Below are positions 18,838-59,622 of a DNA stretch of 64,000 nucleotides, one piece after another (position 1 is the stretch's first letter; every line of letters begins with the position of its first letter). The position numbers and the translations under genes are program-made. The DNA comes from an uncultured Candidatus Saccharibacteria bacterium (GTDB taxonomy: Bacteria > Patescibacteriota > Minisyncoccia > Phycocordibacterales > UBA9973), in the NCBI GenBank assembly GCA_964646765.1, contig CAZYIA010000001.1, positions 1,334 through 65,333 on the forward strand, in the 5' to 3' direction. The notes beneath the pieces are model-generated. The model searched no databases. It saw nothing but the letters and a program-made list of their open reading frames with translations, and had not been told where the DNA came from.

Positions 18838-18967
18838 ATGGAATGCCAGAACGCGAAAAACTTTAGCCTCCTTCTAAACCTCCTTACGCCACTCGAGGGT
18901 TGATTCCTGCGTTCGAAACGATCGAAATCAGAAATCAGCTCTCGAAAGAGGGCTGATTTTGTTTTTT
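18838..18967 (+). ncRNA. candidate small RNA (promoter-to-terminator unit, about 130 nt)
   Basis: Bounded by the promoter above and a 10-bp stem plus T-run terminator at 18934-18967. The only ORF inside is 12 codons. Confidence 0.3.
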
Positions 18968-19004
18968 GATAAAAAAATATTGTTGAACTCTTAAATTTAC
19001 CGCT

Positions 19005-29132: not shown

Positions 29133-29174
29133 GTTAGTTGCGAGCGATTCTAAAGAATCGCTCGCCAAGGCTTC

Positions 29175-30926: not shown

Positions 30927-30958
30927 TATACTCTCGTTACTAACTAACCCATAAAAAT

Positions 30959-32251: not shown

Positions 32252-32390
32252 GCTTGCATATTTTTTAGGCCCATGCTTAACTAGAACTACATGATTACTT
32301 ATAAGCACAACGCAATCCCTTGTCTTCCACCTACCACCGCGGAGGGTTGTCCTTTGTGCTTGTAAGAAATTTCTAACTTCGAGCCTAGAT

Positions 32391-32428
32391 GAGAGCCCTC
32401 CGCAGAACACGGAAGGCTCTTTTCTTTT
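32391..32428 (+). terminator. intrinsic terminator after rpoD
   Basis: agagcc...ggctct stem followed by tttctttt. It sits inside a larger imperfect palindrome running 32299-32366. Confidence 0.55.
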
Positions 32429-32471
32429 ATATTCAAATAATCTAATCATTAACCAACTAAAAAGCTGAATT

Positions 32472-33560
32472 ATGAAACCAAGCAACAACCAACCGTATTT
32501 CTTTGCCGTTATTGGAACAGGCAAACTCGCAAAAGCATTTGCAATCTTCTTTGTTTTTTTACTTAGTAAAAAACAACGTAAAAACGTTCTATTTATTGGA
32601 CCGCAGAAAACTTCTAACCTGGACTACTTTAAGAAATTGGGTTTTTCCGTTTCAAACGACTACCAATTAGTGGCCAATGTTCGGTCGGTAGTGATAGCTG
32701 TTGCCCCCGGTGGTATTGGAGACGTCCTGTTTGCTCTGAAGTACGCCCAATTACAACCAGACTTTGACCAGTATTTTGTGGTCATTGTTTCTGGAGTGCG
32801 TAAAGCACCATTTACCGAGGAGGCAGGCATTAACCGCCATAAGTTAATTATCGCTACTACCGACACCAATATTTCTTCCGGCAACGGTTTGATGGTAATG
32901 AATGGTGAAGGCACCAGCCCATACTTTCAGCGTGCGCAAGAAGAAATGAAAATGTTTGGAACCGTACAAGCAACGAGTCCAACTAAGGTGCGCAAATCAA
33001 TTACATTTGTTGGCTCCTGGGCTGCATTTAACGCAAAAGACCTATGGGTAAGTTATATTACTTCTGGTGTTACTTGTAGTTTTACCGATTGGCTATTTGA
33101 ACTTTACGAACGGTATGATGAAATTATTAATGCAAAAAAAATAATACCAGAATACGCAGGAGTACAGCAGTATATCCGTGCAATGGTTCCAGTATTAAAA
33201 CGATTCGGCTATCGTAACCACGACAGAACTCGTACTGCTTTCAACCACATTACTAAAATTCTTTTTAATACCGTACTAACCTTTCTTGCAGAAGGAGTTA
33301 CCGATGAGGAAGGAGTACGCCTGTATATAGAAAGAGTAGCAAGTAAAGATGGTTGCACTGAGAGGGGTATTGGAAAGATTAATACACCAGCTGATTTTGC
33401 TTCACCAACTTTGTTAACTACTACCGGTCTTACTATTAACCAGGTAGTAAAAGATGTATTTCCAGTTCGGGTTTCTGAATCAATAGAAGAAGCTCGTAAA
33501 AAAGATGGAGGACATATAGTTCACAAAGAACTTGCCAGGGGTAACTACCCATTAACTTAA
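32472..33560 (+). CDS. NAD(P)-binding Rossmann oxidoreductase, pyrroline-5-carboxylate reductase-like, with C-terminal extension
   Basis: AVIGTGKLA dinucleotide-binding motif at the N-terminus. ProC-like central blocks VVIAVAPGG and IIATTDTN. 362 aa against about 270 for a canonical ProC. Confidence 0.4.
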   Translation: MKPSNNQPYFFAVIGTGKLAKAFAIFFVFLLSKKQRKNVLFIGPQKTSNLDYFKKLGFSVSNDYQLVANVRSVVIAVAPGGIGDVLFALKYAQLQPDFDQYFVVIVSGVRKAPFTEEAGINRHKLIIATTDTNISSGNGLMVMNGEGTSPYFQRAQEEMKMFGTVQATSPTKVRKSITFVGSWAAFNAKDLWVSYITSGVTCSFTDWLFELYERYDEIINAKKIIPEYAGVQQYIRAMVPVLKRFGYRNHDRTRTAFNHITKILFNTVLTFLAEGVTDEEGVRLYIERVASKDGCTERGIGKINTPADFASPTLLTTTGLTINQVVKDVFPVRVSESIEEARKKDGGHIVHKELARGNYPLT

Positions 33561-33625
33561 TTACTAACCAGCAGTAAACGAAAAATGCCCCTGCTTTTCA
33601 AGCCGGGGCATTTTCTTGTCTCTAC

Positions 33626-34366
33626 CTATTTCATTTTAAAGAGACTTCCCATACCACCAGATTTGTGGAGGAGCTCTTCAATCACACCAGTTACTGTTGA
33701 GTAGGAAACAGCACCAGGAATAGCATATTGTTTACCATCTGGAGCGATAACGAGGATAAATGGTGTACCCTGAACACCAACAGCATTACCATCCTCAACA
33801 TCTTTCTGAACCTTTGAAAGGAGTGAGGTATCTTTCATACACGTATCAAACTTTGCCTCATCAGCACCAGCTTGTACTGCGAGCTTTGGAAGTTGTGCTG
33901 GATCAAGACCGTTGTTTGATGGGGTAACTGCAAAAACTGAGTTTACGAATTTCCAGAAACCTTCATTGCCAAGCTGCGCAGCCACACATTCAGAAGCCAA
34001 TGCTTCATTACGAGCTTTGGGGTGGAGAGAATCGAGAGGGAAGTGGCGATATACCCAACGTACTTTTGTACCGTAATCTTTCATCACAACTTCCATTGTT
34101 TGATGAAAACGCTTACAAAATGGACACTCAAGATCAGTGTACTCAATGAACGTAAGTGGGGCGTTAGCTCCACCCAGAGAGTAGTCTGTAGCATCTACAG
34201 CACGGGCTGGAACGTTAATTGGATTTTGAGTAATCTGGGCTATCTGCTGAATAATATCAGGATCCTTAATTTCGGTTCCTTTTGAGACATTGCTCGCATA
34301 AATTGCACCGGCAATAAGGAGGCCAGCAACAACAATAGCGGCAGGAATACTAAGGCGATCGCTCAT
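33626..34366 (-). CDS. DsbA-family thiol:disulfide oxidoreductase, membrane-anchored
   Basis: N-terminal TM. CPFC active site in ECPFCKRFH within a thioredoxin fold. Confidence 0.85.
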   Translation of the reverse strand: MSDRLSIPAAIVVAGLLIAGAIYASNVSKGTEIKDPDIIQQIAQITQNPINVPARAVDATDYSLGGANAPLTFIEYTDLECPFCKRFHQTMEVVMKDYGTKVRWVYRHFPLDSLHPKARNEALASECVAAQLGNEGFWKFVNSVFAVTPSNNGLDPAQLPKLAVQAGADEAKFDTCMKDTSLLSKVQKDVEDGNAVGVQGTPFILVIAPDGKQYAIPGAVSYSTVTGVIEELLHKSGGMGSLFKMK

Positions 34367-34451
34367 AGATAGATGTTTTAAAAATTACGAATAACACTTC
34401 CCGTGATTAGGGTAGGGTAAGTATAGCATGGCGCCATGAAGCAAAAAGCAA

Positions 34452-35309
34452 CTACCAATCAAGGTTTATCTTTTCAAAAAGGTTATCCTTTTGAATATAG
34501 AGAACGCTACCTTTAACGATGAAAAGAAGATTTTTACCTGAGATGAGTTTTGACTCGTTGTGGCCTCCATAGCGGTCGATTTCGCTCACGTAAATGCCAT
34601 CATCTTTGGCGAGGATAACAATGTCGTTACGATTTGGGAAAAAGTCAAAACTAGTTTCAGTTGGAACACCTCGAGCGATAGCTGAAACTAAAGAGCAAAC
34701 CCCAGGAGCATCACAAAAATAATGCGGAAGAGTATTTTCGCTGCCAGTCCATTCACCATAGATACTGTCGCCAAATTGGAAAATATGCGTTTTATCTTGA
34801 GTGTGTTCTTTCATAACTGGAGAGGAAGTGATTTCTCCAGAAACAGGGTCACGCACTGGGATAAACAGTTTTCGAGTTGTTGTGTATTCAGGGTTCGTAA
34901 GTAGGTGGCCATTCTCGTCAGTGATTTTTTGAGGTATTTCTGTAATTTCGGGTTCTAACGGAATTTGAAATGGGTGAACATCGGTTACTTTTCCAGCAAC
35001 CACCGGGACATCTTTCTCCCAGCTAGAAAAATTTTCTCGAGCAAAGAGCACACGATACGTTGTAGGAGTAAAACCTTGGCTGAGTGAGTCAGTAGTAACG
35101 TAGGGAGTAGTAAGGCTACCTCCTGAAATAGTTGTTACACCTTTAATATTTTCTCGATGAATATAAATACCACCAGTCTCAACTAATCCTTGCTTTTGCG
35201 ACAGTCGAAAACCAGAGACGTAGAGAAATAGCACTGGAAGGATAACAATGAAAATTGCGATAGCAATACCTAAAAGTGCTGCACGTTTTGTAGAAGTAAG
35301 TGGTTCCAT
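34452..35309 (-). CDS. hypothetical membrane-anchored extracytoplasmic protein
   Basis: 285 aa. One N-terminal TM, remainder likely extracellular. Confidence 0.5.
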   Translation of the reverse strand: MEPLTSTKRAALLGIAIAIFIVILPVLFLYVSGFRLSQKQGLVETGGIYIHRENIKGVTTISGGSLTTPYVTTDSLSQGFTPTTYRVLFARENFSSWEKDVPVVAGKVTDVHPFQIPLEPEITEIPQKITDENGHLLTNPEYTTTRKLFIPVRDPVSGEITSSPVMKEHTQDKTHIFQFGDSIYGEWTGSENTLPHYFCDAPGVCSLVSAIARGVPTETSFDFFPNRNDIVILAKDDGIYVSEIDRYGGHNESKLISGKNLLFIVKGSVLYIQKDNLFEKINLDW

Positions 35310-35318
35310 TTTTCTCTA

Positions 35319-36929
35319 TTATACATGAGAGAGAGAAATTTTTTTATTATTTCCTCCACGATGTTTTGGGGTAACCCAAAATCCCATGTATTTACCTAAC
35401 AGTAATCGTGTTTGAGCTTCAATGCCTGGGAGCGCGCCAAAGACAACAATTGAGAAGGGTACCAAAAGCCATTCAATAACCATAATTGTTCGAGAAAGGT
35501 AGGGTCGTTTGATGTGTTCCGGAGCTTTTGGTACAAATTGGGAAGCGATAAATGCAGACGATAGAATACCACTCATAGAAAGCACCATCAAAAGCTGGGT
35601 AATGATTGGTAAGTTGTAGGCAAGAGTACTGTGGGCGAAGGTGTAACCGCCGATAACGCCGGGTAGCCAACCAAGGAGGAAAATAAAAATAGGATTTGTA
35701 GCGAGGGCCCAGTAACCGTCAATTTGAATAAGAGCTGTAGAAAGACGTTTCTTTATTGGAATGCGCTTATTTTTAATGAATGAAAAAAGAAGATACGGAA
35801 CATTTTCAGCACCCCACATCCAGCGGCGATGCTGTTTGTACACGTTCTTACAGGTTTCAATGAAGTTTTTTCCCAGATTCGCGTCCATAGAGACTGGATA
35901 GGCCATTGGTGTTACGGTATAGGCACCATTGTAAGCAACATAGGCATTCCAAAAAATTCGAGAGTCATCTGAGACAATGTTGCGCTGCCAGTAACCAAGC
36001 TCAACAAGTGTTTGAAATGAAACTGAGTGTGATGAAAACGTCACTAATTCTTCAGGGCGTTCCTGTTGAATCATTTGCCAAAAGGTTCCCGAAAGAGCAG
36101 GAACACGAGAGAATGGTGGCACATCCCAAATGTTGTTATTGTAAAACGGAATTGGCTGGAAACTTGTTCGATACGGGTTTTTACTGGTTATAAAATGATA
36201 GGCAAGTACATTAAAATATTCTGGGTAAATAACTGAGTCAATATCAAAGGCAGACGCGATAACATCTGTATAGGCAATATGTTTTACATCAAGAATTTGT
36301 TTACGAACTTCCTCGCTCGCGTAAGAAATGTTTGAACCTTTACCTGCAAGTTCACCTGGTACATTACTTGGATGTACCGTAACTAAAAAGTGGCCAAAGG
36401 TGTTGTTAAATTTTTTCTCAGCGTCGTGAGCACGAGTAATCGCATCTGGGCCACCACTTTGCTCTGCGGCAAGTACAACAATAAATTTTGAAAGATCATA
36501 GTGAGCTTTCGTAAGTGATAGTAAGGTATCTTCAATAACTGTCGTTGATTCTGAATGGAAGGGGAGAAGAATGAGATGATAGAGATGCTGGTATGATGTA
36601 CCCTCAAGTTTTTTTTGCCAGTCGGTAGCAAGATTTTTCTTTACCCGGCTATAGTTGTGATGTAAATGGAAAGAGAGGTACGCAGTTTTTAGAAGCCAGT
36701 AGAGATCAAAGGCAATAATAAAAAGTGCTGCACCGCGTGGTGCAAAGTAGGAGATAAGAACCGTACCAAACAGAGTGCCCCAGGTAAGTAAGCCCGGCAG
36801 CATCTCTAAAAAGCGATATAGCCTGCGATCGTTGCCTGTGAGTTCACTTGCGCGCCCGACATGAAAATACGGAGTGTGAATGTACTCCGTGTTCAATGCG
36901 GCTTTATTTTGTAAGGTCGTTTCAGCCAT
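35319..36929 (-). CDS. GT2-family processive beta-glycosyltransferase (cellulose-synthase-like) membrane protein
   Basis: 536 aa. QxxRW motif QHRRWMWGAE, central catalytic domain, multiple TMs. Confidence 0.7.
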   Translation of the reverse strand: MAETTLQNKAALNTEYIHTPYFHVGRASELTGNDRRLYRFLEMLPGLLTWGTLFGTVLISYFAPRGAALFIIAFDLYWLLKTAYLSFHLHHNYSRVKKNLATDWQKKLEGTSYQHLYHLILLPFHSESTTVIEDTLLSLTKAHYDLSKFIVVLAAEQSGGPDAITRAHDAEKKFNNTFGHFLVTVHPSNVPGELAGKGSNISYASEEVRKQILDVKHIAYTDVIASAFDIDSVIYPEYFNVLAYHFITSKNPYRTSFQPIPFYNNNIWDVPPFSRVPALSGTFWQMIQQERPEELVTFSSHSVSFQTLVELGYWQRNIVSDDSRIFWNAYVAYNGAYTVTPMAYPVSMDANLGKNFIETCKNVYKQHRRWMWGAENVPYLLFSFIKNKRIPIKKRLSTALIQIDGYWALATNPIFIFLLGWLPGVIGGYTFAHSTLAYNLPIITQLLMVLSMSGILSSAFIASQFVPKAPEHIKRPYLSRTIMVIEWLLVPFSIVVFGALPGIEAQTRLLLGKYMGFWVTPKHRGGNNKKISLSHV

Positions 36930-37030
36930 TACGATCTTCGTAGTTTACCGTAAATGGTGAAATTTTCAAGTAATAAAAAACTAGCCACCTCAGTATGTCG
37001 AGATGGCTAGTTGTCGCTATATAGTAGCGC

Positions 37031-38497
37031 TTATTCTTCGATTAGTAGTGAAAGTAGTAAATTATAGAACCGGTATACCGAATCGGTATCAACCCATTCT
37101 CTTGTTGTATGAACATCACCCATCGTAGGACCAAAAGATACAATCTCTACACCAGGCATACGTTTGTAAAAAGAAGCACACTCAAGCCCAGCGTGGATTG
37201 TTTTAACTTCAGGTTCACCCCCAAACTGTTCTTTGTATTTACGCTTCAGTAGTGCCAGTAGTTTAGTGTTAAATTGTGGTTCCCATGGCGCGTATTCAGC
37301 AACCACTTCAGTTTCTGCATGTGCTGTTTTGAACAGCGTATTAATTTCTTTTCCCAGTTCGGTAATCTTTGAACTAAGGGAACTTCTAAACATACTGGTA
37401 ATTTTAACGCAGCCGTCTTCCATTTCTACCAGTCCAACATTATTTGATGTCTGAACCATAGTTTTATCTTCTGGTTCCATGCTCATTACACCATCCGGTA
37501 AGTTTGTTAGCAGTTTTAGAAAATCACTTTGTTGGTCGGAGTTCCAGTACTTTTGTGTAGGTTCACCGGTAACCAATTCAATGCTGAACTTTAAACTTTC
37601 GTTTCGGCACAGGTTTCCAGCCTGTTCGGTTAGTAGTGGTATTAAGCTGTTGAATTTCGGTACGTCATTAGTGCGTATCAATATAACTGCCTTTGCCGTA
37701 GAGGGGATGGCATTCATAGCGGTACCACCAGTGAATGAAATAAAACTAAAATCCACACTGCCTTTTAGGTCGGAGAATATTTTTGCCAAAACCTTGATGG
37801 CATTTACGCGGCCTAAGTGTATATCAACGCCAGAGTGTCCACCGGCCAAACCCGATAGCTCAATACTGTAAGTTTTGTAATTAAGTACCGGTTTTACTAA
37901 CTCCAGGTTAATTGAACCAACTACTCTACCTCCACCTGCGCAGCCAACGTATATAATTCCTTCCTCTTCAGAGTCGAGGTTCAGGATACGTTTGCTTTGC
38001 AGAAGGGAATAGTCGAAGTTTTCAGCTCCTACTAAACCTTCTTCTTCGATGGTTGTGTATAGCAGTTCCAGTGGGCCGTGCGGAATAGTTTTGTCAGCCA
38101 TGATAGTCATCATTGCTGCAACACCAATACCGTTGTCGGCTCCCAAAGTGGTATCAGTAGCGGTAAGTATGTTGTCGTTTAGTATAAGTTGGATAGGGAA
38201 CATTTCGGCAACGCTGTCTTCTTTTACACATACCATGTCAGTATGGCTTTGTAAGCACAGTAATGGCAGGTGTTCATAGCCGGAGGAAGCAGGTATGCGT
38301 ACCAGCACGTTGTGCAGGTTATCGCGTATTACTTCCAGCCTTAGCTCGGTAGCTAAGGCAATCAGCATGTCTGCTACAGCAGCTTCATTTTTTGATTTCC
38401 GTGCAATCATGCACAGAGTTACGAAATGCTTCCACAAGTTAATGGGAAGTAGATTGGCGATTACAGCCAGATTGTTTTGGAGGATGTCCTTTTTCAT
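37031..38497 (-). CDS. pepD: aminoacyl-histidine (Xaa-His) dipeptidase, M20C family
   Basis: 488 aa with PepD-type sequence LCLQSHTDMVC...DNGIGVAAMM. Bacteroidetes-like codon usage (CTG, AAG, AGA) unlike the surrounding genome. Confidence 0.8.
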   Translation of the reverse strand: MKKDILQNNLAVIANLLPINLWKHFVTLCMIARKSKNEAAVADMLIALATELRLEVIRDNLHNVLVRIPASSGYEHLPLLCLQSHTDMVCVKEDSVAEMFPIQLILNDNILTATDTTLGADNGIGVAAMMTIMADKTIPHGPLELLYTTIEEEGLVGAENFDYSLLQSKRILNLDSEEEGIIYVGCAGGGRVVGSINLELVKPVLNYKTYSIELSGLAGGHSGVDIHLGRVNAIKVLAKIFSDLKGSVDFSFISFTGGTAMNAIPSTAKAVILIRTNDVPKFNSLIPLLTEQAGNLCRNESLKFSIELVTGEPTQKYWNSDQQSDFLKLLTNLPDGVMSMEPEDKTMVQTSNNVGLVEMEDGCVKITSMFRSSLSSKITELGKEINTLFKTAHAETEVVAEYAPWEPQFNTKLLALLKRKYKEQFGGEPEVKTIHAGLECASFYKRMPGVEIVSFGPTMGDVHTTREWVDTDSVYRFYNLLLSLLIEE

Positions 38498-38722
38498 AAT
38501 AATGGTTTCGTTTTAGTTGTTACCAGAAGAGGGAAGTCTCCTCTGATAACAACTAAAATTGTATGTCAAAAAGTGACGGTTTTCGTTACATTACCATGAT
38601 TTTGCAGTTAGTCAAAAGTTCTTTTTTAGTCGAAGGGCCATCGATCTAATAAAAGGAGGGTCCATTGAAAAACAGATCAAAGTCTGCTAATCTATTGTGG
38701 CTACAGGGTTTTTTAGCCCAGT

Positions 38723-38795
38723 GCCGCCTTAGCTCAGTTGGTAGAGCAACGCTTTTGTAAAGCGAAGGTCCTCGGTTCAAGTCCGAGAGGCGGCT
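38723..38795 (+). tRNA. tRNA-Thr (anticodon TGT)
   Basis: Acceptor GCCGCCT/AGGCGGC, D-arm GCTCAGTTGGTAGAGC, anticodon loop TTTGTAA, T-arm CTCGG-TTCAAGT-CCGAG, discriminator T. 73 nt. Confidence 0.85.
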
Positions 38796-38922
38796 CAGAA
38801 AATTTTCTATTTAGTCATGATGTATGCGAGGTATGTCCTGCGCGAAGGTACGTCGCTTGAGAAGCGGGAGCGGATGGGGCATCTGCGGACACGGCTAGTG
38901 CTGAACGATAAGAAAATTACGC

Positions 38923-41646
38923 TTATGGCTGAGTAGTTCCTTGATTCAGTTTTAATGAAAGCAAAGCGACGTCCTTCTTGGAGTTTCTCTTTTCCAAACC
39001 GTCTAAGACCTTCTTTTCTGTCTCGGGTGTCCAATATATCTTCAATTTTTCCTTCGCTCTCGTGATTGCTGTATAGAAAATATTATGCGTTATCATTTCC
39101 TCTACCTCGTTTGTAATGACAACTTTAACTGAATCAAACTCAAGACCTTGTGCCTTGTGGATTGAAACCGCATAGGAAACCTGAAATGGCACTATCGCAT
39201 CGGAAGAAGAGTCGTCATCATCTTCATCGGTGCTGGGGTATTTGTTGACTGAAAAACGGATAATGGACTTACTTCCGTCAGGTGTGTTGCCAACTAGTTG
39301 GAAATCGTAGCCTTCTGCATCAAGCTCGTTTATTACTTTATCGATCTCGATATCGAACTGGATCCTGTCATTATTTTTGGTAATACCAACGATCTTACCC
39401 TTAAGGTTGTTATAGATGAGCGGAGAGAATCTATTCATCTCATTGAACAGTACAGGGTCACCAATTTTGTAGGTGTGAACTCCCCAGTACATCGGACTGT
39501 TCTTGTTGTTGCTTTGGAGAAATCTATTGATGTTGTTGATGCCGTATAATCCATCGTAATTCAGACAGAGCACGATCTCATCCTCCTCGGCATTCTCAAA
39601 GAAAGATTGATCAAGCTTCACGGAGTATTTATTCTTTGTTATGTGTTCAAGAATATCGGTGTCTATGTTCCGTACTTTATTCCACAAGGTGATCAACTTC
39701 TCGTTAGTGCTACGGTATGGCTTAGTCAGCTCAAACCTAGATGTTTGAGGAATGAAGGACTGGGCAATATTGAACCAGTTACCAAAGTTTATAGACTCTA
39801 TCTGGAACACATCTCCGACCAAGACGAGTAATTTGAACTTTGCTTTTTCCAGAACCGCACGCATATCCGAATTGCTGACGGTACTACATTCATCAATAAT
39901 CAATATGTCGTAGTCGAAATCTGTATTTTTAGGCGAAAGGAATTTACTGATCGTCTTGTATGTACAGTTAGCGGCTTGAACCTTTCTTCTCAAGTTATCT
40001 ACCGCAGGGTTGGTGTTCGCTAGATAAAGTTTGGTCTTATCGTTAAAGAAATTCGATATGTGATTTATCATTGTCGACTTTCCAGTACCAGCGGCACCAT
40101 ACACCAACGCCACCTTTGATTTTTCAAACAATCTTCTCAAAGCATCCTTCTTTTCTTCACAGTCGACAATGTGCGTAGATGTCTGAAGCCAAGAATCGAT
40201 CGAATTAGCGTAGTTGCGAATACCTGTAGATGAAAGCTCGGTCAACTTTTTGATGATGTACAAGGCAGCCTCTTCATATCCCTTGATGTAGATATGGTCT
40301 TTAAACTTCTCCAACTTGCGATGCCCGTGTTTGAAGTATAAGGAAGAATTGTATTTCTGGATCAATGCATCGACGTCTTTAAACCCATCCGTGTCGCTCA
40401 TAGGAGTGTAGAGCTGACCGTCAATTTCGTTTTTATTTGTAATAAACTTTGCGAACATTTCATGCTCTCGACCTGTTGCATCAATGCAATCAAATAGGTC
40501 ATGTGCTCTCGGCTTATGGTTGAGAGGCGAGGAATTGAAAGGCATCTCATCAAACGGAATACACCCGAATTCTAGTTTCAAATTTGAGAGGTTCGGACAC
40601 TCATCGTGGCTATATTGCTGCTTGATGATTTTGTTATTGAGTCTGTAAAGCAGGTATCTGACTACATTTGTACCGGCTTTCTTTGCTTGCACAAATGCAC
40701 GGACATTATCCAGTACATCAAAAATGTATTTAGTCTTTGCCGCGCTTACAATCTTGGACCTTATGCTACCGTAGTAATCGTCAGATAGGTCCATGAACTC
40801 TGTAAGATTCAGTCCTGTCTCCGTCAGAAACCTCATTAACTCCTTGTACTCATTTCCACTTTGGATCTTGGGATCTTTTCCGAAGATTTTCGCAAAGTTA
40901 TTCAACTCACAAGGACGGATAGACACCTCCCAATCGTTAATGATTTGGATGGGCATGTTCTTATCCACGATCTTTATGCTGTCGGTAGTCAAAGATAGCT
41001 TCACGGCATAGTTGTCAGATATATCTAACTTTGTAAAAGCAATGATTCTGTCGAACTTGCTTGCGTAGTCATTAGCGCGTGTAAAAGTTACCTCGTAATA
41101 CACTTCGTAATTGACGAAGAAGGGTTTTACCTTTTGAATGTAGAACCTGTCGCTATTAACACCTTTGGGGTCTGCAGGTGGCTGATGGTTTATTTTCTCA
41201 GCAATTTTTTCGTGATACTCCTTGAGGACGGAATCGGTATTGATGGGAAAGGCATCTATATTCTTGAGAACTTCCAAGTTGTGAGTCTTCTTTAGGTAGG
41301 ACTTTATCTTCAAAAGATACTCGTAATACTTGAGCATCAGCCTCTCCGAATTTTCTTCGTCAGGCGTGTAATGAGAAATTGTCTTTTGAAGAAGCTTGTG
41401 GAAATTACTCAAAAACCGCAGATCGCCCCTGGTCTTAACGTAAGCTTCGCCACTCTTGATGTTTTCGTATGAGTTATCTATGTCCTTGCCGTTGCTGAAT
41501 GCTTTCAGCGAGATGTGGTCGACAAAGTTTCTAAGTTGCGACAGTATGTTCTGTGACAGCAACCCTCTTTCGGAAGTATCAAACCTGTCGATATTGGCAG
41601 ATATGACTTTGTCTGTATTTAAGATTTCAGTATCGACTTTGCTCAT
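38923..41646 (-). CDS. standalone 907-aa fusion protein: uncharacterised N-terminal region with HEPN-like R-x4-H motif plus a C-terminal RecD/TraA-type SF1 helicase
   Basis: Walker A VALVYGAAGTGKST. Walker B/DExx ILIIDECS. Motif III LVLVGDVFQ. Motifs V/VI AVSIHKAQGLEFDSVKVV and TAITRAK. LRNFVDH at residues 38-44. AGA/AGG-rich codon usage. Flanked by tRNA-Thr and its inverted partial copy. Confidence 0.75.
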   Translation of the reverse strand: MSKVDTEILNTDKVISANIDRFDTSERGLLSQNILSQLRNFVDHISLKAFSNGKDIDNSYENIKSGEAYVKTRGDLRFLSNFHKLLQKTISHYTPDEENSERLMLKYYEYLLKIKSYLKKTHNLEVLKNIDAFPINTDSVLKEYHEKIAEKINHQPPADPKGVNSDRFYIQKVKPFFVNYEVYYEVTFTRANDYASKFDRIIAFTKLDISDNYAVKLSLTTDSIKIVDKNMPIQIINDWEVSIRPCELNNFAKIFGKDPKIQSGNEYKELMRFLTETGLNLTEFMDLSDDYYGSIRSKIVSAAKTKYIFDVLDNVRAFVQAKKAGTNVVRYLLYRLNNKIIKQQYSHDECPNLSNLKLEFGCIPFDEMPFNSSPLNHKPRAHDLFDCIDATGREHEMFAKFITNKNEIDGQLYTPMSDTDGFKDVDALIQKYNSSLYFKHGHRKLEKFKDHIYIKGYEEAALYIIKKLTELSSTGIRNYANSIDSWLQTSTHIVDCEEKKDALRRLFEKSKVALVYGAAGTGKSTMINHISNFFNDKTKLYLANTNPAVDNLRRKVQAANCTYKTISKFLSPKNTDFDYDILIIDECSTVSNSDMRAVLEKAKFKLLVLVGDVFQIESINFGNWFNIAQSFIPQTSRFELTKPYRSTNEKLITLWNKVRNIDTDILEHITKNKYSVKLDQSFFENAEEDEIVLCLNYDGLYGINNINRFLQSNNKNSPMYWGVHTYKIGDPVLFNEMNRFSPLIYNNLKGKIVGITKNNDRIQFDIEIDKVINELDAEGYDFQLVGNTPDGSKSIIRFSVNKYPSTDEDDDDSSSDAIVPFQVSYAVSIHKAQGLEFDSVKVVITNEVEEMITHNIFYTAITRAKEKLKIYWTPETEKKVLDGLEKRNSKKDVALLSLKLNQGTTQP

Positions 41647-41693
41647 GAGAATATTTACATTTTAGCATTTTTCGGTCTTATTTTATTTAAACA

Positions 41694-41724
41694 AAAAAGA
41701 GCGATTCATATCGCTCTTTTTTGT
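41694..41724. terminator. bidirectional hairpin terminator
   Basis: aaaaaagagcgat-tcat-atcgctctttttt. Confidence 0.6.
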
Positions 41725-41807
41725 ACAACCTTTAGCTTCGTGGGTCACAGCTCAACCTAGAGCATGTGGGTCATCAAAACTACCAGGTTGTCAATGCGGG
41801 TTTAGTG

Positions 41808-41897
41808 AGATTCGAACTCGGCGACCCGTTTTTTCCAAGAAGTAGCTCTACAAACACTTTGTTAATAAAAATAACCTTATAATATAAGGCTTTTTTT
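41808..41897 (+). terminator. two tandem hairpin plus T-run elements
   Basis: cgggt...acccg followed by tttttt at 41808-41845. Perfect 15-bp palindrome ccttataatataagg followed by ttttttt at 41875-41897. Confidence 0.45.
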
Positions 41898-41921
41898 GGG
41901 GAAGAGGGTAGACCTGTTTAT

Positions 41922-41957
41922 TACAAAAGCGTTGCTCTACCAACTGAGCTAAGGCGG
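41922..41957 (-). repeat. exact 36-nt copy of the tRNA-Thr 5' half (nt 1-36) in inverted orientation
   Basis: Reverse complement is GCCGCCTTAGCTCAGTTGGTAGAGCAACGCTTTTGT, identical to 38723-38758. It diverges after the anticodon with no matching 3' half. Confidence 0.8.
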
Positions 41958-41972
41958 CAATATTTGTTTTGG

Positions 41973-42560
41973 TTATTCTACTATATTTTCGGGAGAATTG
42001 GATACTGGTTCTGTGGTAGTAGGATTTTCTGTCTTGGTTTCCATAACTGAAGCAACATGAACGGTTCGCTTGCGGCGGGCTGGTTTCTTAATTGCTTCGG
42101 TTACTGTTTCAGTGACAGTATGCACGGTTCTTCCTGCATCCTGAACTGTTTTTTCAACTTCAGTTTGCATTTCTTTTGCTGCGTTTCGAAGCGTATCTTT
42201 GTATTCAGAAATGGAGTTTAAGAATTGCTCACTGGTTCGGTTTGCTTCGAGTGCTCCTTTCTCATGTTCAATCCGAGCGAGCATTTTGTGCACTAAGGTG
42301 TCGAGCTTTACGCGAACCTTATGCGCAAAGAGGGCAGTGGTGTGCAGAAAGCGAATGAAGAATGTGCGAATTTGGTCACGAAGGGCGATCAAAAATGCTC
42401 GGGTAATTGCTTCTACTTTAGCTAAGGCAAGAGGATTCTCATGCTCTGGATCGAATGCCGCCGGATTAATTCGGTTCGTTTTGATTTGCCACGCACGAAG
42501 CGAGACAGTACCAACGATACCGACGAGCGAAACGATCCAGAGAATAAGAACGAATGACAT
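41973..42560 (-). CDS. hypothetical membrane-anchored coiled-coil protein
   Basis: 195 aa. N-terminal TM then a helical region. Host-like codon usage. Confidence 0.5.
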   Translation of the reverse strand: MSFVLILWIVSLVGIVGTVSLRAWQIKTNRINPAAFDPEHENPLALAKVEAITRAFLIALRDQIRTFFIRFLHTTALFAHKVRVKLDTLVHKMLARIEHEKGALEANRTSEQFLNSISEYKDTLRNAAKEMQTEVEKTVQDAGRTVHTVTETVTEAIKKPARRKRTVHVASVMETKTENPTTTEPVSNSPENIVE

Positions 42561-42568
42561 ACTTTATA

Positions 42569-43348
42569 TTATGCACCAATTTGGAGAAGTGACACCTCCT
42601 TTAATTTTCCTCCAGCTGATTCAATGTGCTTTAGAATCGTTACATCAGGATTTTTGATGAATGCCTGGTCGAGCAATGTGCGTTCCTTAAAGTAAGTAGC
42701 AAGTTTCCCAGCAAGCATTTTTTCCTGAATGTCGGCAGGCTTTCCAGAAGCAGCTACTTCTTCAGCAAACATTGCCTTTGCCTTTTCGGTCATATCGGCA
42801 GGAATATCGGTTGCGCGGATGTACTCTGGATGCATTGCTGCAACGTGCATAGCAACGTCCTTTGCAACATCAGCGTTGCCTCCTTCAAGCGAGACAACCA
42901 CAGCGGTTTTGCCATTGTGGACGTAGCTTCCGATAGTCGTACCAGAAACTTCAACGATGCGGCCGAGCTTAATGTTTTCACCAATCTTCTGAATGATCGC
43001 ATTAATCATGTCAGGAGCTGCGGCTTCTGCTGCGTCTTTACCTTCCGCGAGCGCTTTTTGAGCAATTGCTTCCGCAAGTGAAACGAAGTCGGCATTTTGT
43101 GCCACGAAGTCAGTTTCGCAATTAAGCTCAACGAGTACCGCTTTGTCATCTTTTTTAAGAACAACAATGCGACCTTCGACTGCTTCGCGATCACTTTTCT
43201 TAGCCGCAATTTCAGTCGACTTCTTTTTAAGGATCATGAGCGCCTTTTCCATATCACCGCCGGCTTCTTCGAGCGCCTTGCGGCACTGCATAACCGAGAT
43301 GCCAGTTTGATCACGGAGGGCTTTTACTTGGTCTGTGGTGATTGCCAT
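42569..43348 (-). CDS. tsf: translation elongation factor Ts
   Basis: MAITTDQVKALRDQTGISVMQCRKALEEAGGDMEKA is an EF-Ts UBA-like N-terminus. Start placed at this M rather than the ORF-track 43441. Confidence 0.9.
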   Translation of the reverse strand: MAITTDQVKALRDQTGISVMQCRKALEEAGGDMEKALMILKKKSTEIAAKKSDREAVEGRIVVLKKDDKAVLVELNCETDFVAQNADFVSLAEAIAQKALAEGKDAAEAAAPDMINAIIQKIGENIKLGRIVEVSGTTIGSYVHNGKTAVVVSLEGGNADVAKDVAMHVAAMHPEYIRATDIPADMTEKAKAMFAEEVAASGKPADIQEKMLAGKLATYFKERTLLDQAFIKNPDVTILKHIESAGGKLKEVSLLQIGA

Positions 43349-43383
43349 ACGAAAGAACAAAATTAAAGAACTAATGGAGCAGT

Positions 43384-44082
43384 TTATGCTGTAGGGTTTG
43401 AGGTGAGGCCACCGCGCCATGCAGATACTGCGCGTTCGCAAATCAGATTAATTGATGAAACTGATCCATCATTACCAACGATTGGGTAGGCGATACCTGA
43501 AACGTTCGTGTCAGTGTTTGCAAGAGCGATAACTGGAATACCAATTTTCTGAGCTTCAGTTACGGCAATGTGTTCGCGCTTTGGATCGATAACAAAGAGA
43601 GCATCAGGTTTCTGGGTGAGGCCGGTAAGACCTGAGAAGAGCTTGTGCATTTTTGCAATTTCCTCGTCGAGGAGAAGGCGTTCCTTCTTCGTGTACTTAT
43701 CGAGTTCGCCAGCTTCTTTTTTAGCTTTGAGATCAATAAGACGAGCAATACGCTTCTTGATTTCTGGCCAGTTAGTGAGCACGCCACCTACCCAGCGTTC
43801 AACGATGTACGGCTGGTCGAGGCGTTCAGCGGCACCTTTTACAGTTTCGCGAGCTTCTGGCTTAGTACCAACGAAAAGAACTTTCTTGCCTTTTGCAGCA
43901 AGAGAAGCAAGAAAAGCTTCAGCGGTAGCAAGCTGCGCTGCAGTCTTTTCAATATCGATAATGTCGACTTTGTTTTTCGTGGTGAACACGAATTTCGCAG
44001 CCGATGGGTGGCGACGCGTTTTTGAGTAACCAAAGTGTGCGCCGGCCTGGAAGAGTGAATCAACCAATGATTGGTCTGACAT
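43384..44082 (-). CDS. rpsB: 30S ribosomal protein S2
   Basis: 232 aa. AGAHFGYSKTRRHP... is the S2 signature. Classic rpsB-tsf pair. Confidence 0.9.
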   Translation of the reverse strand: MSDQSLVDSLFQAGAHFGYSKTRRHPSAAKFVFTTKNKVDIIDIEKTAAQLATAEAFLASLAAKGKKVLFVGTKPEARETVKGAAERLDQPYIVERWVGGVLTNWPEIKKRIARLIDLKAKKEAGELDKYTKKERLLLDEEIAKMHKLFSGLTGLTQKPDALFVIDPKREHIAVTEAQKIGIPVIALANTDTNVSGIAYPIVGNDGSVSSINLICERAVSAWRGGLTSNPTA

Positions 44083-44344
44083 AAAAACTCTCTATCCGAG
44101 TCCCTTAGCGGGAACCGGTTAATTTATAAGTGTAGGTTCGAGGCCTACAGCATTCCGTTCATAAGCATTGCAGCATATTTACAGGGAGGAGCGCTTGTAC
44201 CAGAGGCCGAAGCCTGTTGGGCTAAACTAAAAACTCCCCACGGAGTGCCAAAACACAATACCTCAAAAACCGAAAAAAAGCAAGAATTTCTAAGGCTTAA
44301 AAGTTGTAAAACTAAGGCTTTTAGGCTACTATCACTGTACTTAT

Positions 44345-45604
44345 ATGCGTCAATCAAAGCTTTTTACCAAGACCAAGCGGGAGGACCCGAAAGACGAGGT
44401 TTCCAAGAACGCTAAACTCTTAATTAGGGGTGGTTTCGTTCATAAGGAAATGGCTGGAGTGTATGCTTTCTTACCACTTGGCTTACAGGTGCTCAGCAAT
44501 ATCGTGGCGATTATTCGTGAAGAAATGAATCGCATTGGGGGTCAAGAAGTGGTGCTTACCGCTCTTCAAGAACGTGAACTATGGGAAAAAACCAACCGTT
44601 GGGACGATGCCGTTGTTGATACGTGGTTCAAAACAAAGTTAAAGAATGATACCGAACTTGGTTTAGGTTTTACGCATGAAGAGCCGCTGACACGTCTTAT
44701 GAAGGATCATATTTCTTCATACCGTGATCTGCCTGTTTCGGTGTATCAGTTCCAAACAAAATTTCGAAATGAAACGCGGGCTAAAAGTGGCATTATGCGC
44801 ATGCGCGAATTTTTAATGAAAGATTTGTACTCATTCTCGCGCAATAAAGAAGAACACGATGCCTATTATGAAAGAGCAGCCGAAGCGTACTTGAAAATTT
44901 TTGAACGTGTTGGCTTAGGTAGTCTCACCTATAAAACATTTGCTTCTGGTGGCGTCTTTTCAAAATACTCGCACGAGTTTCAAACGCTCACTGAAGCAGG
45001 CGAGGATATCATTTATGTATCAGAAGCAAAGAAAATCGCCATCAACAAAGAAGTGTACACCGAAGATGTATTACAAAATCTTGGCTTAACAAAAGAAGAA
45101 CTTGTAGAAAAGAAAGCGGTTGAAGTGGGAAATATTTTCACTCTTGGTACTCGTTTCTCAGAACCGCTTGAACTTACTTTTCTTGATGAGAATGGTGAGA
45201 AGAAGCCGGTACTCATGGGCTGTTACGGCATTGGCCCTGGCCGAGTGATGGGCACTATTGTTGAAGCGCTTTCTGATGAGAAGGGAATTGTGTGGCCAGA
45301 ATCGGTTGCGCCATTCCGGGTACATCTTCTTGCTCTTGGCGAAACAGAAACCGTGCGCGAAACAGCCGACAAACTCTATGGTGAACTTTCTGATGCCGGT
45401 GTCTCAGTTCTCTATGATGATCGCCGCGCTTCGAACGGAGAAAAATTTGCTGACGCTGATTTACTTGGTATGCCATATCGCGTAGTTGTTTCAGAGCGCA
45501 GCATGAAAGAAGGTGGCGCCGAAGTAAAAAAGCGAACCGAAGAAAAAGGTTCGATTTTACCGTTCACTGATGTCATTGGTTTTCTCTCTCCTAAAAAGGA
45601 TTAA
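44345..45604 (+). CDS. proS: prolyl-tRNA synthetase (short form lacking the editing insertion)
   Basis: 419 aa. N-terminus MRQSKLFTKTKRE...LIRGGFV and class II motifs FRNETRAKSGIMRMREF and GCYGIGPGRV. Confidence 0.85.
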   Translation: MRQSKLFTKTKREDPKDEVSKNAKLLIRGGFVHKEMAGVYAFLPLGLQVLSNIVAIIREEMNRIGGQEVVLTALQERELWEKTNRWDDAVVDTWFKTKLKNDTELGLGFTHEEPLTRLMKDHISSYRDLPVSVYQFQTKFRNETRAKSGIMRMREFLMKDLYSFSRNKEEHDAYYERAAEAYLKIFERVGLGSLTYKTFASGGVFSKYSHEFQTLTEAGEDIIYVSEAKKIAINKEVYTEDVLQNLGLTKEELVEKKAVEVGNIFTLGTRFSEPLELTFLDENGEKKPVLMGCYGIGPGRVMGTIVEALSDEKGIVWPESVAPFRVHLLALGETETVRETADKLYGELSDAGVSVLYDDRRASNGEKFADADLLGMPYRVVVSERSMKEGGAEVKKRTEEKGSILPFTDVIGFLSPKKD

Positions 45605-45609
45605 TACGT

Positions 45610-46656
45610 ATGTTTGATTCACTCTACCAATCATTTTCAAACGACATCGGTATCGATCTTGGTACCGCAAACACCCTCGTGTATTTAAAAGGTCACGGCA
45701 TTGTTATCAATGAACCATCGGTGGTAGCAGTAAACCAAAAGACTGGTCAGATCGTGGCAGTAGGAACTGAAGCAAAACAAATGCTCGGCCGTACACCAGG
45801 GCACATTAAGGCAATCCGCCCGCTTGTTGATGGAGTGATTTCAGATTTCGAAGTGACCGAAGAAATGCTTGCCTATTTGATTGGTAAGACTGAAAAAACT
45901 TCTAAGAAAATGTTTCGCCCTCGCGTAGTTGTTGGTATTCCAACCGGAACCACCAACGTAGAATCGCGCGCTGTGTACGATGCGGCAAAATCTGCTGGTG
46001 CTCGCGAAGTGTATTTGATCGAAGAGCCGATGGCAGCTGCAATTGGTATTCGTTTGCCAATTAAAGATGCCGTGGGATCAATGATTATCGATATTGGTGG
46101 GGGAACTACTGACATCGCAGTGATTTCGCTCGGTGGTATTGTACGAAGCAAAAATCTAAAAATTGCCGGCGATAAATTTAACAATGATATCTCAACCTAC
46201 CTTCGTGATGAATTTAAACTTTTGATTGGTGAGAAAACTGCTGAAGGAGTGAAGCTTGCTGTCGCAAATGTACTCCCAGGAAACTTTATGGAAGCTGAAG
46301 TGCGCGGTCGTGATCTTGTTTCAGGGTTGCCTCGAGAAGTTATCATTACCGATTCTGACGTTCGTGAAGCTATTGGCCCCTCGGTAAACCAACTCATTGA
46401 TGGTGTAAAAGAAGTGCTTGAAACCACACCACCAGAAATTTTGGGTGACGTTATGCACCGCGGTATTGTGCTTTCAGGTGGCGGTGCGCTACTTCGTGGC
46501 CTCGATGAACTTCTTCATAACGTTTTGAAAATTCCAATTTATATTGCTGAAGATCCACTCACAGCTGTTGCTCGAGGAGCTGGTGTTGTACTTGATGATA
46601 TAGAGTACTATCGCGAAGTGCTTGTTGACGCTGAACATGAACACACGCTTCGCTAA
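45610..46656 (+). CDS. mreB: rod shape-determining protein MreB
   Basis: DLGTANTLVY, DIGGGTTD and actin-fold blocks. 348 aa. Confidence 0.9.
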   Translation: MFDSLYQSFSNDIGIDLGTANTLVYLKGHGIVINEPSVVAVNQKTGQIVAVGTEAKQMLGRTPGHIKAIRPLVDGVISDFEVTEEMLAYLIGKTEKTSKKMFRPRVVVGIPTGTTNVESRAVYDAAKSAGAREVYLIEEPMAAAIGIRLPIKDAVGSMIIDIGGGTTDIAVISLGGIVRSKNLKIAGDKFNNDISTYLRDEFKLLIGEKTAEGVKLAVANVLPGNFMEAEVRGRDLVSGLPREVIITDSDVREAIGPSVNQLIDGVKEVLETTPPEILGDVMHRGIVLSGGGALLRGLDELLHNVLKIPIYIAEDPLTAVARGAGVVLDDIEYYREVLVDAEHEHTLR

Positions 46657-47422
46657 ATCTTCCCGTCGCGGACCACATACGCTGCTTGTCGCTGCTCTTG
46701 TTTTTGTTCTTTGTTTTATTGCTTCCGTTTTTATTTTTCCTGCTTTTGGGCATCTATTTCGTACTATGCTCCGACCTCTTACGAGCGTAAGTAGTGGTAT
46801 TGGTTCTGGTTTTGAAACACTGGGTGCCTATTTTGGTTCTAAAGCTCACATGGAACGACGGAATCAAGAACTTGAAAATCAAATTACTGAACTACAAACT
46901 CGGTTACTTGATCGCGATAGCATAGCTCTCGAAAATGCTGCGCTGCAAGAAATTTTAAATCGTAAGGTTTCAGAAAAATTTACACTTGCCCGTGTTTTAG
47001 TAAAACCAAATCGTTCACTGTACGACACAGTTATTATTGATATTGGTAAAGACAATAATCTACGCGTTGGAGCTCAGGTGTTTGCCTACGGTGATGTTCC
47101 TATTGGAACTGTGGCAACTGTGGATGCAAAAACGTCACTGGTAAAACTTTATTCATCTCCTGGTGAAGTGGTCACTGGTCGTATTGAAGGACTTGATATC
47201 GATGTTACACTCACGGGCCGCGGCGGCGGTAATTTTGAAGCTGAGCTCCCGCGCGAAGTCAAAGTAACTGAAGGCCAGAATGTCGTATTACCAGCTTCAA
47301 CGCCACTTATTATTGCCAAATTTGGTAAGGAAATTTCTGATCCACGTGATCCAGCACAAAAGTTTATTCTCACTGGCCCAATAAATATGAGTGAGCTTAA
47401 CCTGGTAGAAATTGGAGAATAA
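46622..47422 (+). CDS. mreC: rod shape-determining protein MreC
   Basis: Lies directly after mreB. N-terminal TM, coiled coil, beta-rich C-terminal domain. Confidence 0.75.
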   Translation: MLTLNMNTRFAKSSRRGPHTLLVAALVFVLCFIASVFIFPAFGHLFRTMLRPLTSVSSGIGSGFETLGAYFGSKAHMERRNQELENQITELQTRLLDRDSIALENAALQEILNRKVSEKFTLARVLVKPNRSLYDTVIIDIGKDNNLRVGAQVFAYGDVPIGTVATVDAKTSLVKLYSSPGEVVTGRIEGLDIDVTLTGRGGGNFEAELPREVKVTEGQNVVLPASTPLIIAKFGKEISDPRDPAQKFILTGPINMSELNLVEIGE

Positions 47423-47424
47423 TA

Positions 47425-48633: not shown

Positions 48634-48671
48634 ATAAAGTACTCTAGTCACAGAATATAATCCAAGGTAGT

Positions 48672-49631: not shown

Positions 49632-49635
49632 ATCT

Positions 49636-51602: not shown

Positions 51603-51625
51603 AAGAATATACCTGTATTGCCTTC

Positions 51626-55143: not shown

Positions 55144-55240
55144 CGGACGCTTCGCATATCTCGCGCCGCTATTGATTCTTGGCCCCGAATTACATAAATC
55201 TGGGTATCTCTTTTTTGTTGATTTTTCCTGGGGTCCTTCA

Positions 55241-57228: not shown

Positions 57229-57262
57229 ATATATTAACAATTTGCTATACTAGCGGGTATCT

Positions 57263-58579: not shown

Positions 58580-58580
58580 T

Positions 58581-59555: not shown

Positions 59556-59622
59556 CATTATAGCGGTATCTAGACAGGATTAGTGCACATGTTACTGTGA
59601 AGGTAACTAAATCCCGTCATAA

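Follow-up and report, generated by a model that had tools for sequence, protein, structure and literature searches.

A lineage-specific insertion with an opposed tRNA half-copy at a tRNA-Thr gene of a Patescibacteria bacterium

The locus examined here lies in a 64,000-nt stretch of contig CAZYIA010000001.1, called the window throughout. A dipeptidase gene (pepD), an intact tRNA-Thr gene and a gene for a 907-residue helicase stand between a glycosyltransferase gene (GT2) and a small gene next to tsf and rpsB, and the 5′ half of the tRNA is repeated, inverted, on the far side of the helicase. How did one tRNA gene come to be present as a whole and as an opposed half, and was the DNA around it acquired? 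An earlier note, made from the letters alone, had proposed a compositionally foreign island bounded by the half-copy. Comparison with sister genomes showed that about 5.0 kb of the window is a lineage-specific insertion. The half-copy is the 5′ half of the native tRNA-Thr, which has stayed in situ; the break follows position 38, and no 3′ half stands before GT2 any longer.

Results

Sister genomes and the ancestral site

In three sister contigs (L175 and L176, tsf 85% identical to that of the window, and a third at 83%) the genes follow the order rpsB-tsf-193aa-GT2(536 aa)-286aa-DsbA-like...sigma70-DnaG-rpoC. This is the order of the window minus pepD, the helicase and the tRNA rearrangement; pepD and the helicase are absent from the locus in all three. 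The third contig was read from gene calls only, and a tRNA-Thr between the 193-aa gene and GT2 was confirmed in L175 and L176. There the gap of ~82 nt between these genes holds an intact tRNA-Thr(TGT) and nothing else. The tRNA is on the same strand as its neighbours and starts 7 nt past the stop codon of the 193-aa gene; its 3′ end, an encoded CCA, abuts GT2 directly and overlaps the ATG. The window is collinear with L175 on both sides of the insertion, at 74-80% nucleotide identity.

Since the sister genomes are without the insert at this locus, window ~36930-41920 is a lineage-specific insertion. The ancestor had one tRNA-Thr(UGU) between the 195-aa gene (the window's small gene downstream of rpsB-tsf) and GT2, all on one strand. 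The empty site suggested earlier as a check, with GT2 directly after the small protein and tsf, was found in all three sister contigs, and an empty site holding an intact tRNA-Thr supports the idea that the segment was acquired horizontally, at or beside a tRNA gene. The 195-aa protein matched no Pfam family.

Protein searches with tsf returned homologs at 89%, 85%, 83%, 81%, 74% and 67% identity. Because the named matches at 62-65% were 'Candidatus Pacebacteria', the host is placed by protein similarity among the Patescibacteria, as a Pacebacteria-like bacterium. A deeply divergent host, an idea raised by a tsf scan of species genomes (~40% matches from many phyla, among the matches listed), was ruled out by the Pacebacteria-like relatives at 62-85%. 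The more distant relative L178 (tsf 67%) is also without pepD and without the helicase at this locus. In L178 a tRNA-Thr (11263-11336) lies beside tsf on the opposite strand, after a NUDIX gene; the tRNA has thus been reoriented here at least once independently.

The two tRNA-Thr copies

The tRNA-Thr sequences of the window are as follows.

38722-38760, plus strand: inverted-repeat arm 1, tRNA-Thr positions -1 to 38, the 5′ half of the intact gene (repeat finder pair, 100%)
38723-38796, plus strand: intact tRNA-Thr(TGT), inverted relative to the ancestral orientation, no encoded CCA (ARAGORN, Rfam)
41921-41959, minus strand: inverted-repeat arm 2, 5′ half of the ancestral tRNA-Thr (positions -1 to 38), unmoved in place and strand

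The intact gene was called by ARAGORN and by Rfam (68.9 bits); it is where it had been reported, at 38723-38795, and ends one nucleotide later. A single outstanding inverted pair was returned by the repeat finder (38722-38760 with 41921-41959, 100% complementary). The exact inverted copy described before is thus real, with a length of 39 nt instead of 36 nt. The block ends exactly at the 3′ edge of the anticodon loop, and a perfect 39-mer cannot arise by chance in 7.5 kb.

Arm 2 lies 14 nt downstream of the stop codon of the 195-aa gene. Positions 1-38 of the sister tRNA-Thr match 41958-41921 at 100% in the orthologous place, and the whole sister tRNA is identical to the intact copy of the window (74/74). 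The half-copy had been taken for a boundary of the island; it is no imported repeat but the native tRNA 5′ half in place, now a dead fragment. The 39-nt repeat is the part common to this dead native half and the live inverted copy, and no duplication of an integrase attachment (att) site.

The live copy is 3.2 kb from the native half, inverted, behind a new flank of 224 nt that is common to it and pepD. Its trailer is T-CAG, as in the outgroup L178; the sister trailer is the encoded T-CCA. The outer edge of the repeat is the 5′ end of the tRNA (+1 nt), and therefore fits two separate gene copies with different flanks. The sequences adjoining the two copies are as follows.

38498-38721, no strand: divergent pepD/tRNA-Thr intergenic region, 224 nt, now the upstream flank of the tRNA; without homologs in the sister and other loci
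38797-38822, no strand: short joint from the tRNA 3′ end to a recombinase remnant (sequence reading; recombinase homology begins at 38823)
41861-41920, minus strand: innermost part of the insert on the 195-aa side, a weak AT-rich hairpin plus 23 nt abutting the broken tRNA

A weak candidate promoter (TTGAAA-N17-TAATCT) was read by eye in 38498-38721 and was not called by the consensus scan. The 23 nt at 41898-41920 were considered as the 3′ part of another tRNA, joined by an anticodon-loop crossover; the best match, the 3′ end of tRNA-Ser, agrees at only 9/13 positions and is only suggestive. An intron-bearing tRNA or a transfer-messenger RNA (tmRNA) at 41750-41960 was also considered. Rfam and ARAGORN found neither; the region combines the tRNA-Thr 5′ half with a pseudo-tRNA-Ser. 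A displaced remnant of the tRNA-Thr 3′ half, seen by eye upstream of the GT2 ATG (GTAAA..CGAAG.TC), was rejected at P=0.12 in the most favourable test and P=0.81-0.87 in unbiased tests.

Assembly integrity

Logan contigs from runs SRR11845619, SRR11845633 and SRR11845634 were found by exact-protein look-up. They were built at k=31 (k-mer length) with an assembler that differs from that of the source assembly. Contigs 100% identical to the window cover 26952-38751 (L007), 38731-41950 (L001), 41932-52560 (L003) and 36976-38751, and there are two shorter ones. L007 crosses the GT2-pepD join. Contigs end inside the 39-nt arms because the repeat exceeds k=31, and the inner contig measures exactly 3160 + 2x30 nt. 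As there are contigs on all sides of the arms, all four repeat junctions exist in the reads; they are covered by contigs from the three runs. The sole linear graph path runs through the repeat twice. By cluster membership, the helicase and tsf are on one NCBI contig of 426,523 bp.

One pepD contig (L006, SRR11845634) ends at 36976, between the pepD terminator and GT2, and a contig from SRR11845633 reads through. Strain heterogeneity, or low coverage at the GT2-side junction, may account for the end at 36976.

Composition

GC content is 0.38-0.45 across both boundaries and shows no island. The synonymous-codon usage of each of 49 genes was compared with that of all the rest, against simulated nulls. 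The worst fits of all 49 were those of the helicase (z +16.1) and pepD (z +7.2), and the CTG, AAG and AGA enrichment that had been claimed for both was confirmed in raw codon fractions. Their neighbours GT2, tsf and rpsB proved host-like, as had been said (z -1.4, +0.9 and -2.9), and so did the 195-aa gene (+0.5). The three least host-like 2.5-kb segments of the 64 kb in tetranucleotide usage are at 38.5-42.0 kb (r 0.40-0.47 vs a mean of 0.70); pepD is mildly deviant only (z about -1.3). The proposed compositional island is therefore present in codon usage and in the tetranucleotide minima at 38.5-42.0 kb, mildly so for pepD, and is not present in GC.

GC content at third codon positions is 0.51 in the helicase, ~0.35 in the host and 0.46-0.475 in the helicase's own closest clade. 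As it matches its own clade and not the host, the helicase has probably been resident too briefly to ameliorate. A Bacteroidetes-typical origin, read earlier from the codon usage, was not established; helicase homologs are spread across phyla.

Two other regions of the window stood out. Short adjacent open reading frames at 18558-19013 (minus strand) and 19005-19517 (plus strand) are the third and fourth codon outliers of the 49 genes (z +6.3 and +4.0, CTG fraction 0.29); they may be another small foreign patch, or no real genes. At 48600-59600 an ~11-kb glycosyltransferase gene cluster is absent from the collinear sister L175, where its flanks are ~0.8 kb apart. Part of it (55-58 kb) has the lowest tetranucleotide correlation after the helicase, and the cluster looks like a second lineage-specific variable region.

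The helicase and its decayed island

The features on the helicase side of the insertion are as follows.

38923-41646, minus strand: SF1B (RecD/Dda-like) helicase, 907 aa, PADLOC candidate defence family PDC-S53
38823-38931, plus strand: C-terminal stump of a large serine recombinase, pseudogene, last ~35 codons; convergent with the helicase and overlapping its 3′ end
41650-41673, minus strand: promoter-like or 5′-leader block AAAATGCTAAAATGTAAATAT, just upstream of the helicase start
41691-41724, minus strand: symmetric intrinsic-terminator hairpin between the tRNA module and the helicase promoter, 15+15 nt perfect arms
41725-41794, minus strand: ~70-nt conserved spacer with a small hairpin; follows the tRNA-Ser 3′ end in all close helicase loci
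41795-41860, minus strand: degraded tRNA-Ser(TGA) pseudogene; T arm and acceptor 3′ strand recognisable, anticodon arm deleted

The helicase matched the PDC-S53 hidden Markov model (HMM) over its full length (1358 bits, residues 1-901 vs profile positions 1-895 of 900). It also matched PHROG 325 'Dda-like helicase' (2e-76) and the Pfam families AAA_30, Viral_helicase1 and UvrD_C_2. Scores were below cutoff for RecD2 (TIGR01448, 129 vs 500 bits) and RecD (TIGR01447, 107 vs 310), with which only the SF1B core is in common. The AlphaFold model was too poor for a fold search (mean predicted local distance difference test score 60, predicted template modelling score 0.33, N-terminal half of ~490 residues near 50). 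The helicase presumably acts in anti-phage defence. A literature search for PDC-S53 found no paper in the library searched, and to our knowledge this candidate family has no tested function.

Homologs at 64-91% identity over the full 900 residues were found in metagenome-assembled genomes (MAGs) labelled Massilibacteroides, Moranbacteria, Kaiserbacteria and Magasanikbacteria, and also in Clostridium, Virgibacillus, Gracilibacillus and Flavobacteriaceae. More distant full-length copies are carried by two temperate phages and five plasmids. Two of these, full-length at 46-48% identity, are beside a toxin-antitoxin pair and an integrase on a mobilizable 10.7-kb L. plantarum plasmid (L181, NZ_CP137848.1) and beside a repressor in the temperate Terrisporobacter phage TPDSL_ph1 (L182); such positions are typical of accessory or defence genes. 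In a comparison with 80 metagenomic loci the window shared DNA homology over 38904-41698 only, and the flanks are unrelated.

Every member of the closest clade (L088, L089, L090, L179 and L180, 86-91% identical) has, after the helicase, a large serine recombinase gene that converges on it and overlaps it. Variable cargo comes next, among it Type I restriction-modification genes, a ParB-methylase and a DUF4011-like gene. Upstream of the helicase are a tRNA-Ser(TGA) or its 3′ end, a ~70-nt spacer, a hairpin terminator and a promoter-like block. The window has the same tRNA-Ser/spacer/terminator/promoter/helicase order on the minus strand, in decayed form, and all of the elements align. The convergent overlap is preserved by the stump, which matched residues 415-448 and 408-442 of the L088 and L089 recombinases at 51-53% identity and in the same relative position (tblastn; E 6e-11 locally, 1e-6 vs the whole window). 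The rest of the recombinase gene and the island cargo are absent from the 64-kb window.

The upstream elements bear on two earlier claims. The 'tRNA-like debris' is indeed tRNA-derived: the minus strand at ~41795-41860 carries what is left of a tRNA-Ser(TGA), which can be aligned with the whole tRNA-Ser(TGA) at the corresponding place before the helicase in L088, L089 and L180. Neither ARAGORN nor Rfam called it. Of the 'two plus-strand terminators', the hairpin at 41691-41724 is strong and folds equally on both strands (-20 kcal/mol, z -7.4 and -9.1). It is kept on the helicase strand in 7 loci with compensatory changes (double changes in 11/19 pairs). The hairpin at ~41866-41897 is weak and not significant (z -0.8). 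The block at 41650-41673 is near-invariant between the window, L088, L089, L090, L166, L091, L179 and L180.

Between the helicase and its four closest relatives the ratio of nonsynonymous to synonymous substitution rates (dN/dS) was 0.02-0.035, with synonymous sites saturated. The proportion of nonsynonymous differences for the recombinase stump was 0.30, vs 0.12 between intact recombinases. With a low helicase dN/dS and a drifted stump, the helicase is a maintained gene under strong purifying selection and the recombinase a pseudogene. The helicase part is thus the decayed stump of an island of the form tRNA-Ser, spacer, terminator, PDC-S53 helicase, convergent large serine recombinase and defence cargo, of which the helicase alone is intact and under selection.

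Further observations were made in the related loci. The spacer at 41725-41794 and its counterparts in L088, L089, L166, L179 and L180 have the consensus AGACAtTTTAGTATCGGAGTCAAC..., conserved across hosts, and a hairpin with some compensatory changes; it could be a recombinase attachment site or a small RNA co-transcribed with the tRNA. L180 (MAG contig CAYLUP010000003.1) carries a 12.25-kb helicase/serine-recombinase/Type I restriction-modification island with 54-nt direct repeats at its ends, made of the tRNA-Ser 3′ tip and its terminator (sites 2550-2860 and 14887-14940). Just inside the boundary the tRNA-Ser 3′ end is copied twice more, once inverted over 24 nt without mismatch and once in direct orientation over 19 nt. 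Inverted tRNA fragments were considered as a recurrent trait of the family and rejected; L180 alone has one (24 nt), and the other loci are cut at the tRNA or are without such repeats. In L166 a 152-nt inverted repeat (96%) pairs positions 1-152, at the start of the fetched sequence (position 3121 of a 13.6-kb contig), with positions 2817-2968, immediately before a helicase homolog. The helicase cassette may truly have an inverted duplication beside it, or the contig may be misassembled.

pepD and the GT2-side end

The features on the GT2 side are as follows.

35319-36929, minus strand: GT2 glycosyltransferase, ATG at 36927-36929
36930-37030, minus strand: GT2-proximal end of the insertion, with the pepD terminator hairpin (36979-37012) and a promoter-like TTGAAA-16-TAAACT (36942-36969)
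37031-38497, minus strand: pepD, M20 beta-Ala-His (Xaa-His) dipeptidase, 488 aa

The promoter-like site at 36942-36969 is now upstream of the GT2 start codon. The segment 36930-37030 had no match among the fetched loci except in same-strain contigs. PepD matched Pfam Peptidase_M20 and M20_dimer, and TIGR01893 above cutoff (457 bits). The identities given earlier to GT2, pepD, the 907-aa helicase, tsf and rpsB hold by Pfam and TIGRFAM profiles.

The best non-self match of PepD was 61% identical and the next were 53-50%. Its relatives are in unrelated, compact Patescibacteria-like contexts with no tRNA-Thr nearby, and they did not help to reconstruct the ancestral arrangement. The 61% best match led to rejection of a recent import from a known taxon, and cargo of the helicase island was rejected as none of the helicase loci encodes pepD. 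For these reasons pepD, which synteny places inside the insertion, would have a source separate from that of the helicase. The earlier view of one acquired segment thus stands for position, both genes being inside the insertion, and not for a demonstrable common source.

Discussion

Comparison with known islands

The locus resembles the islands at tRNA genes (tDNA islands) of Islander and TIGER. It is foreign DNA at a tRNA gene, absent from sisters, with an intact tRNA and a fragment of it, an anticodon-loop break, a recombinase remnant inside and cargo of atypical composition. The empty site with an uninterrupted target tRNA that Islander looks for in relatives is present in L175 and L176 and, by gene calls, in the third contig. 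Just over half of Islander islands are at an anticodon-centred attP site, and 159/3919 have a displaced 5′ fragment; a fragment in the opposite orientation or on the wrong side of the tDNA is rejected (Hudson, Lau & Williams 2015, PMC4383910). In the window the fragment is the 5′ half (the rare case), inverted and on the wrong side, downstream of the plus-strand tRNA. Only 3.2 of the 5.0 kb lie between the tRNA and its fragment, which do not mark the ends, since pepD is outside them and inside the insertion. The recombinase is a serine-type stump and not a tyrosine integrase, and no integrase is encoded inside. The earlier remark that the inverted orientation suggests an inversion or an unusual recombination event is reasonable, as the arrangement fails the orientation and configuration rules of Islander (PMC4383910).

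Tycheposons and degenerate tRNA-proximal islands offer a second comparison. Their partial tRNAs and fragmented integrases are read as left over from earlier integrations. Large serine recombinases serve a minority of these elements, and the hallmark genes include helicases (Hackl et al., bioRxiv 10.1101/2020.12.28.424599). A small streamlined genome, a tRNA-proximal variable region and partial tRNAs are shared with the window, and the likeness is one of general architecture. The hosts differ (Prochlorococcus vs Patescibacteria), and the window has no intact element. Members of PDC-S53, like the helicase of the window, occur on islands, plasmids and temperate phages near restriction-modification, toxin-antitoxin and repressor genes; the window copy differs in being stranded in the chromosome without a recombinase partner.

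The ssrA islands of Dehalococcoides are reportedly mobilised by a serine recombinase, and are said to keep direct repeats and an intact recombinase, neither of which is present in the window. Genomic islands at ssrA, the tmRNA gene, are treated by McMurdie et al. (2011, PMC3146451).

Proposed origin of the inverted duplication

Taken as a whole, the locus is probably explained by a foreign insertion of ~5.0 kb at tRNA-Thr, comprising pepD, an opposed whole tRNA-Thr and a decayed island stump. The insertion, the 5′ half in place, the decayed island and the selection on the helicase are established; the sequence of events, and where the inverted tRNA copy came from, are inferred. The route preferred here, which on its own is put forward as a tentative choice and short of probable, is an insert with a second, opposed tRNA-Thr followed by deletion of the native 3′ half.

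The 3′ side of a tRNA gene is a classic insertion hotspot. Foreign or mosaic DNA would have been inserted there, bringing or creating a second, oppositely oriented tRNA-Thr. With two copies present one would have become dispensable, and a deletion could then have taken the native 3′ half and adjoining island DNA. Such deletions are typical of streamlined genomes. A similar loss would have removed the body of the recombinase gene, and the helicase would have been kept because it is useful, presumably in anti-phage defence. The second-copy route would explain why the repeat's outer edge falls at the 5′ end of the tRNA, and why the live copy is without the ancestral CCA and has a T-CAG trailer like that of L178. 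It would also explain why the pseudo-tRNA-Ser/helicase/recombinase module is oriented to the upstream tRNA half as in L180 and L088.

Several points weigh against this account. No relative with an intermediate state was found, either two whole tRNA-Thr genes or pepD beside tRNA-Thr. If the tRNA came with pepD from a close relative, as the 74/74 identity needs, the atypical codons and the 61% best match are awkward. The CAG trailer shared with L178 amounts to only 2 informative bases. The defence role of the helicase is drawn solely from a candidate-family HMM. The k=31 graph fits both orientations of the inner 3.16-kb segment, so that the orientation is taken from the source assembly. Lastly, a single inversion with a duplicated breakpoint gives the same sequence.

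Such a one-step inversion is unlikely, and is the first alternative to be weighed. Before it, an intact forward tRNA-Thr would have had the whole composite island on its downstream side, giving tRNA-Thr, recombinase stump, helicase, pseudo-tRNA-Ser, pepD, GT2; this places the island at the canonical 3′-end hotspot. Inversion of the 3.2-kb segment with a breakpoint staggered over tRNA positions -1 to 38 would, by fill-in, have duplicated 39 nt in inverted form and carried the 3′ half to the far end. This route is as compact as the preferred one. It gives the exact observed order with no imported tRNA copy, agrees with the 74/74 identity to the sister tRNA, and has a parallel in the earlier change of tRNA-Thr orientation at the locus in L178. 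Under a random stagger, however, a duplicated block starting at the tRNA 5′ end (+1 nt) is a coincidence, and the live copy is without the ancestral encoded CCA. The orientation of the module to the upstream tRNA half, shared with L180 and L088, suggests that the present junction is primary, and no intermediate of this route was found.

Site-specific integration into the anticodon loop by the island's own recombinase is improbable. The island would have supplied a replacement 5′ half and promoter, and been rearranged later. In its favour are the break at the very edge of the anticodon loop, the recombinase remnant, and the precedent in Islander (PMC4383910) for anticodon-centred attP sites and displaced 5′ fragments. 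L180 is moreover a tDNA-linked island of the helicase family, with its 54-nt direct repeats and 24-nt inverted tRNA-end copy. The fragment of the window is nevertheless opposite in orientation and on the wrong side, each of which is a ground for rejection in Islander, and the related islands are at tRNA-Ser and not tRNA-Thr. An extra inversion and a deletion would be needed, and the candidate displaced 3′ remnant beside GT2 was not significant (P 0.12-0.8).

There is little to be expected of a further alternative, in which the 3.16-kb segment between the arms still flips, by RecA or a recombinase acting in trans, and the window is one of two states. As the segment holds the 3′ half, either state would rebuild a whole tRNA-Thr, behind the pepD-side flank or behind rpsB-tsf-195aa, and the helicase would flip as well; the other state's join would read pepD-flank + 5′ half + TAAACAGG... 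As in invertible switches of the inverton or shufflon kind, inverted repeats flank the segment (39 nt, 100%), and flipping restores the exact ancestral context of the tRNA. The k=31 graphs of the three runs fit both orientations, with contigs that stop inside the arms and the inner contig of 3160 + 2x30 nt; breaks at a repeat longer than k are, however, expected with or without inversion. The sole nearby recombinase is the 35-codon stump and none is intact in the window, 39 nt is a poor substrate for RecA, and there is no direct evidence for a second orientation. The helicase promoter and terminator are inside the segment, so that inversion makes no obvious expression switch, which also counts against it. 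In a very improbable extension, tRNA-Thr would be split over an invertible cassette, with two 5′ halves and their different upstream regions flanking the sole 3′ half and the defence helicase. If true, each inversion would restore a single complete essential tRNA in a changed transcriptional context and turn the helicase round, a recombinational switch made of tRNA halves in a minimal genome.

A chimeric or mis-joined contig, raised as an alternative from the outset, is hardly credible: the window does come from a metagenome-assembled contig, and the Logan contigs break at a repeat longer than their k, but the idea is refuted by four repeat junctions and a GT2-pepD join at 100% identity in three runs and a different assembler, by the sole linear graph path that uses the repeat twice, and by flanks collinear with sister genomes.

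Significance

The feature is a real and fairly ordinary scar of horizontal transfer, an insertion at a tRNA hotspot with a decayed integrative island, and its pattern has been described before. The helicase family, too, is already catalogued as candidate defence. The unusual part is the inverted 5′-half configuration of the tRNA scar, in which an apparently single tRNA-Thr(UGU) gene was disrupted and is accompanied by a relocated, inverted copy. As standard island finders reject such a configuration by design, similar scars are probably under-counted.

The locus gives a clean, base-pair-resolved case of gene gain in a Patescibacteria (candidate phyla radiation) genome, and in minimal genomes each retained foreign gene is informative. 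It indicates that a PDC-S53 helicase can lose its serine-recombinase island and yet stay under strong purifying selection. The tRNA-Ser/helicase/large-serine-recombinase module recurs at five other loci and may represent the core of a family of tDNA-linked elements not described so far, and the helicase that was stripped and kept suggests how ultra-small bacteria may acquire phage defence.

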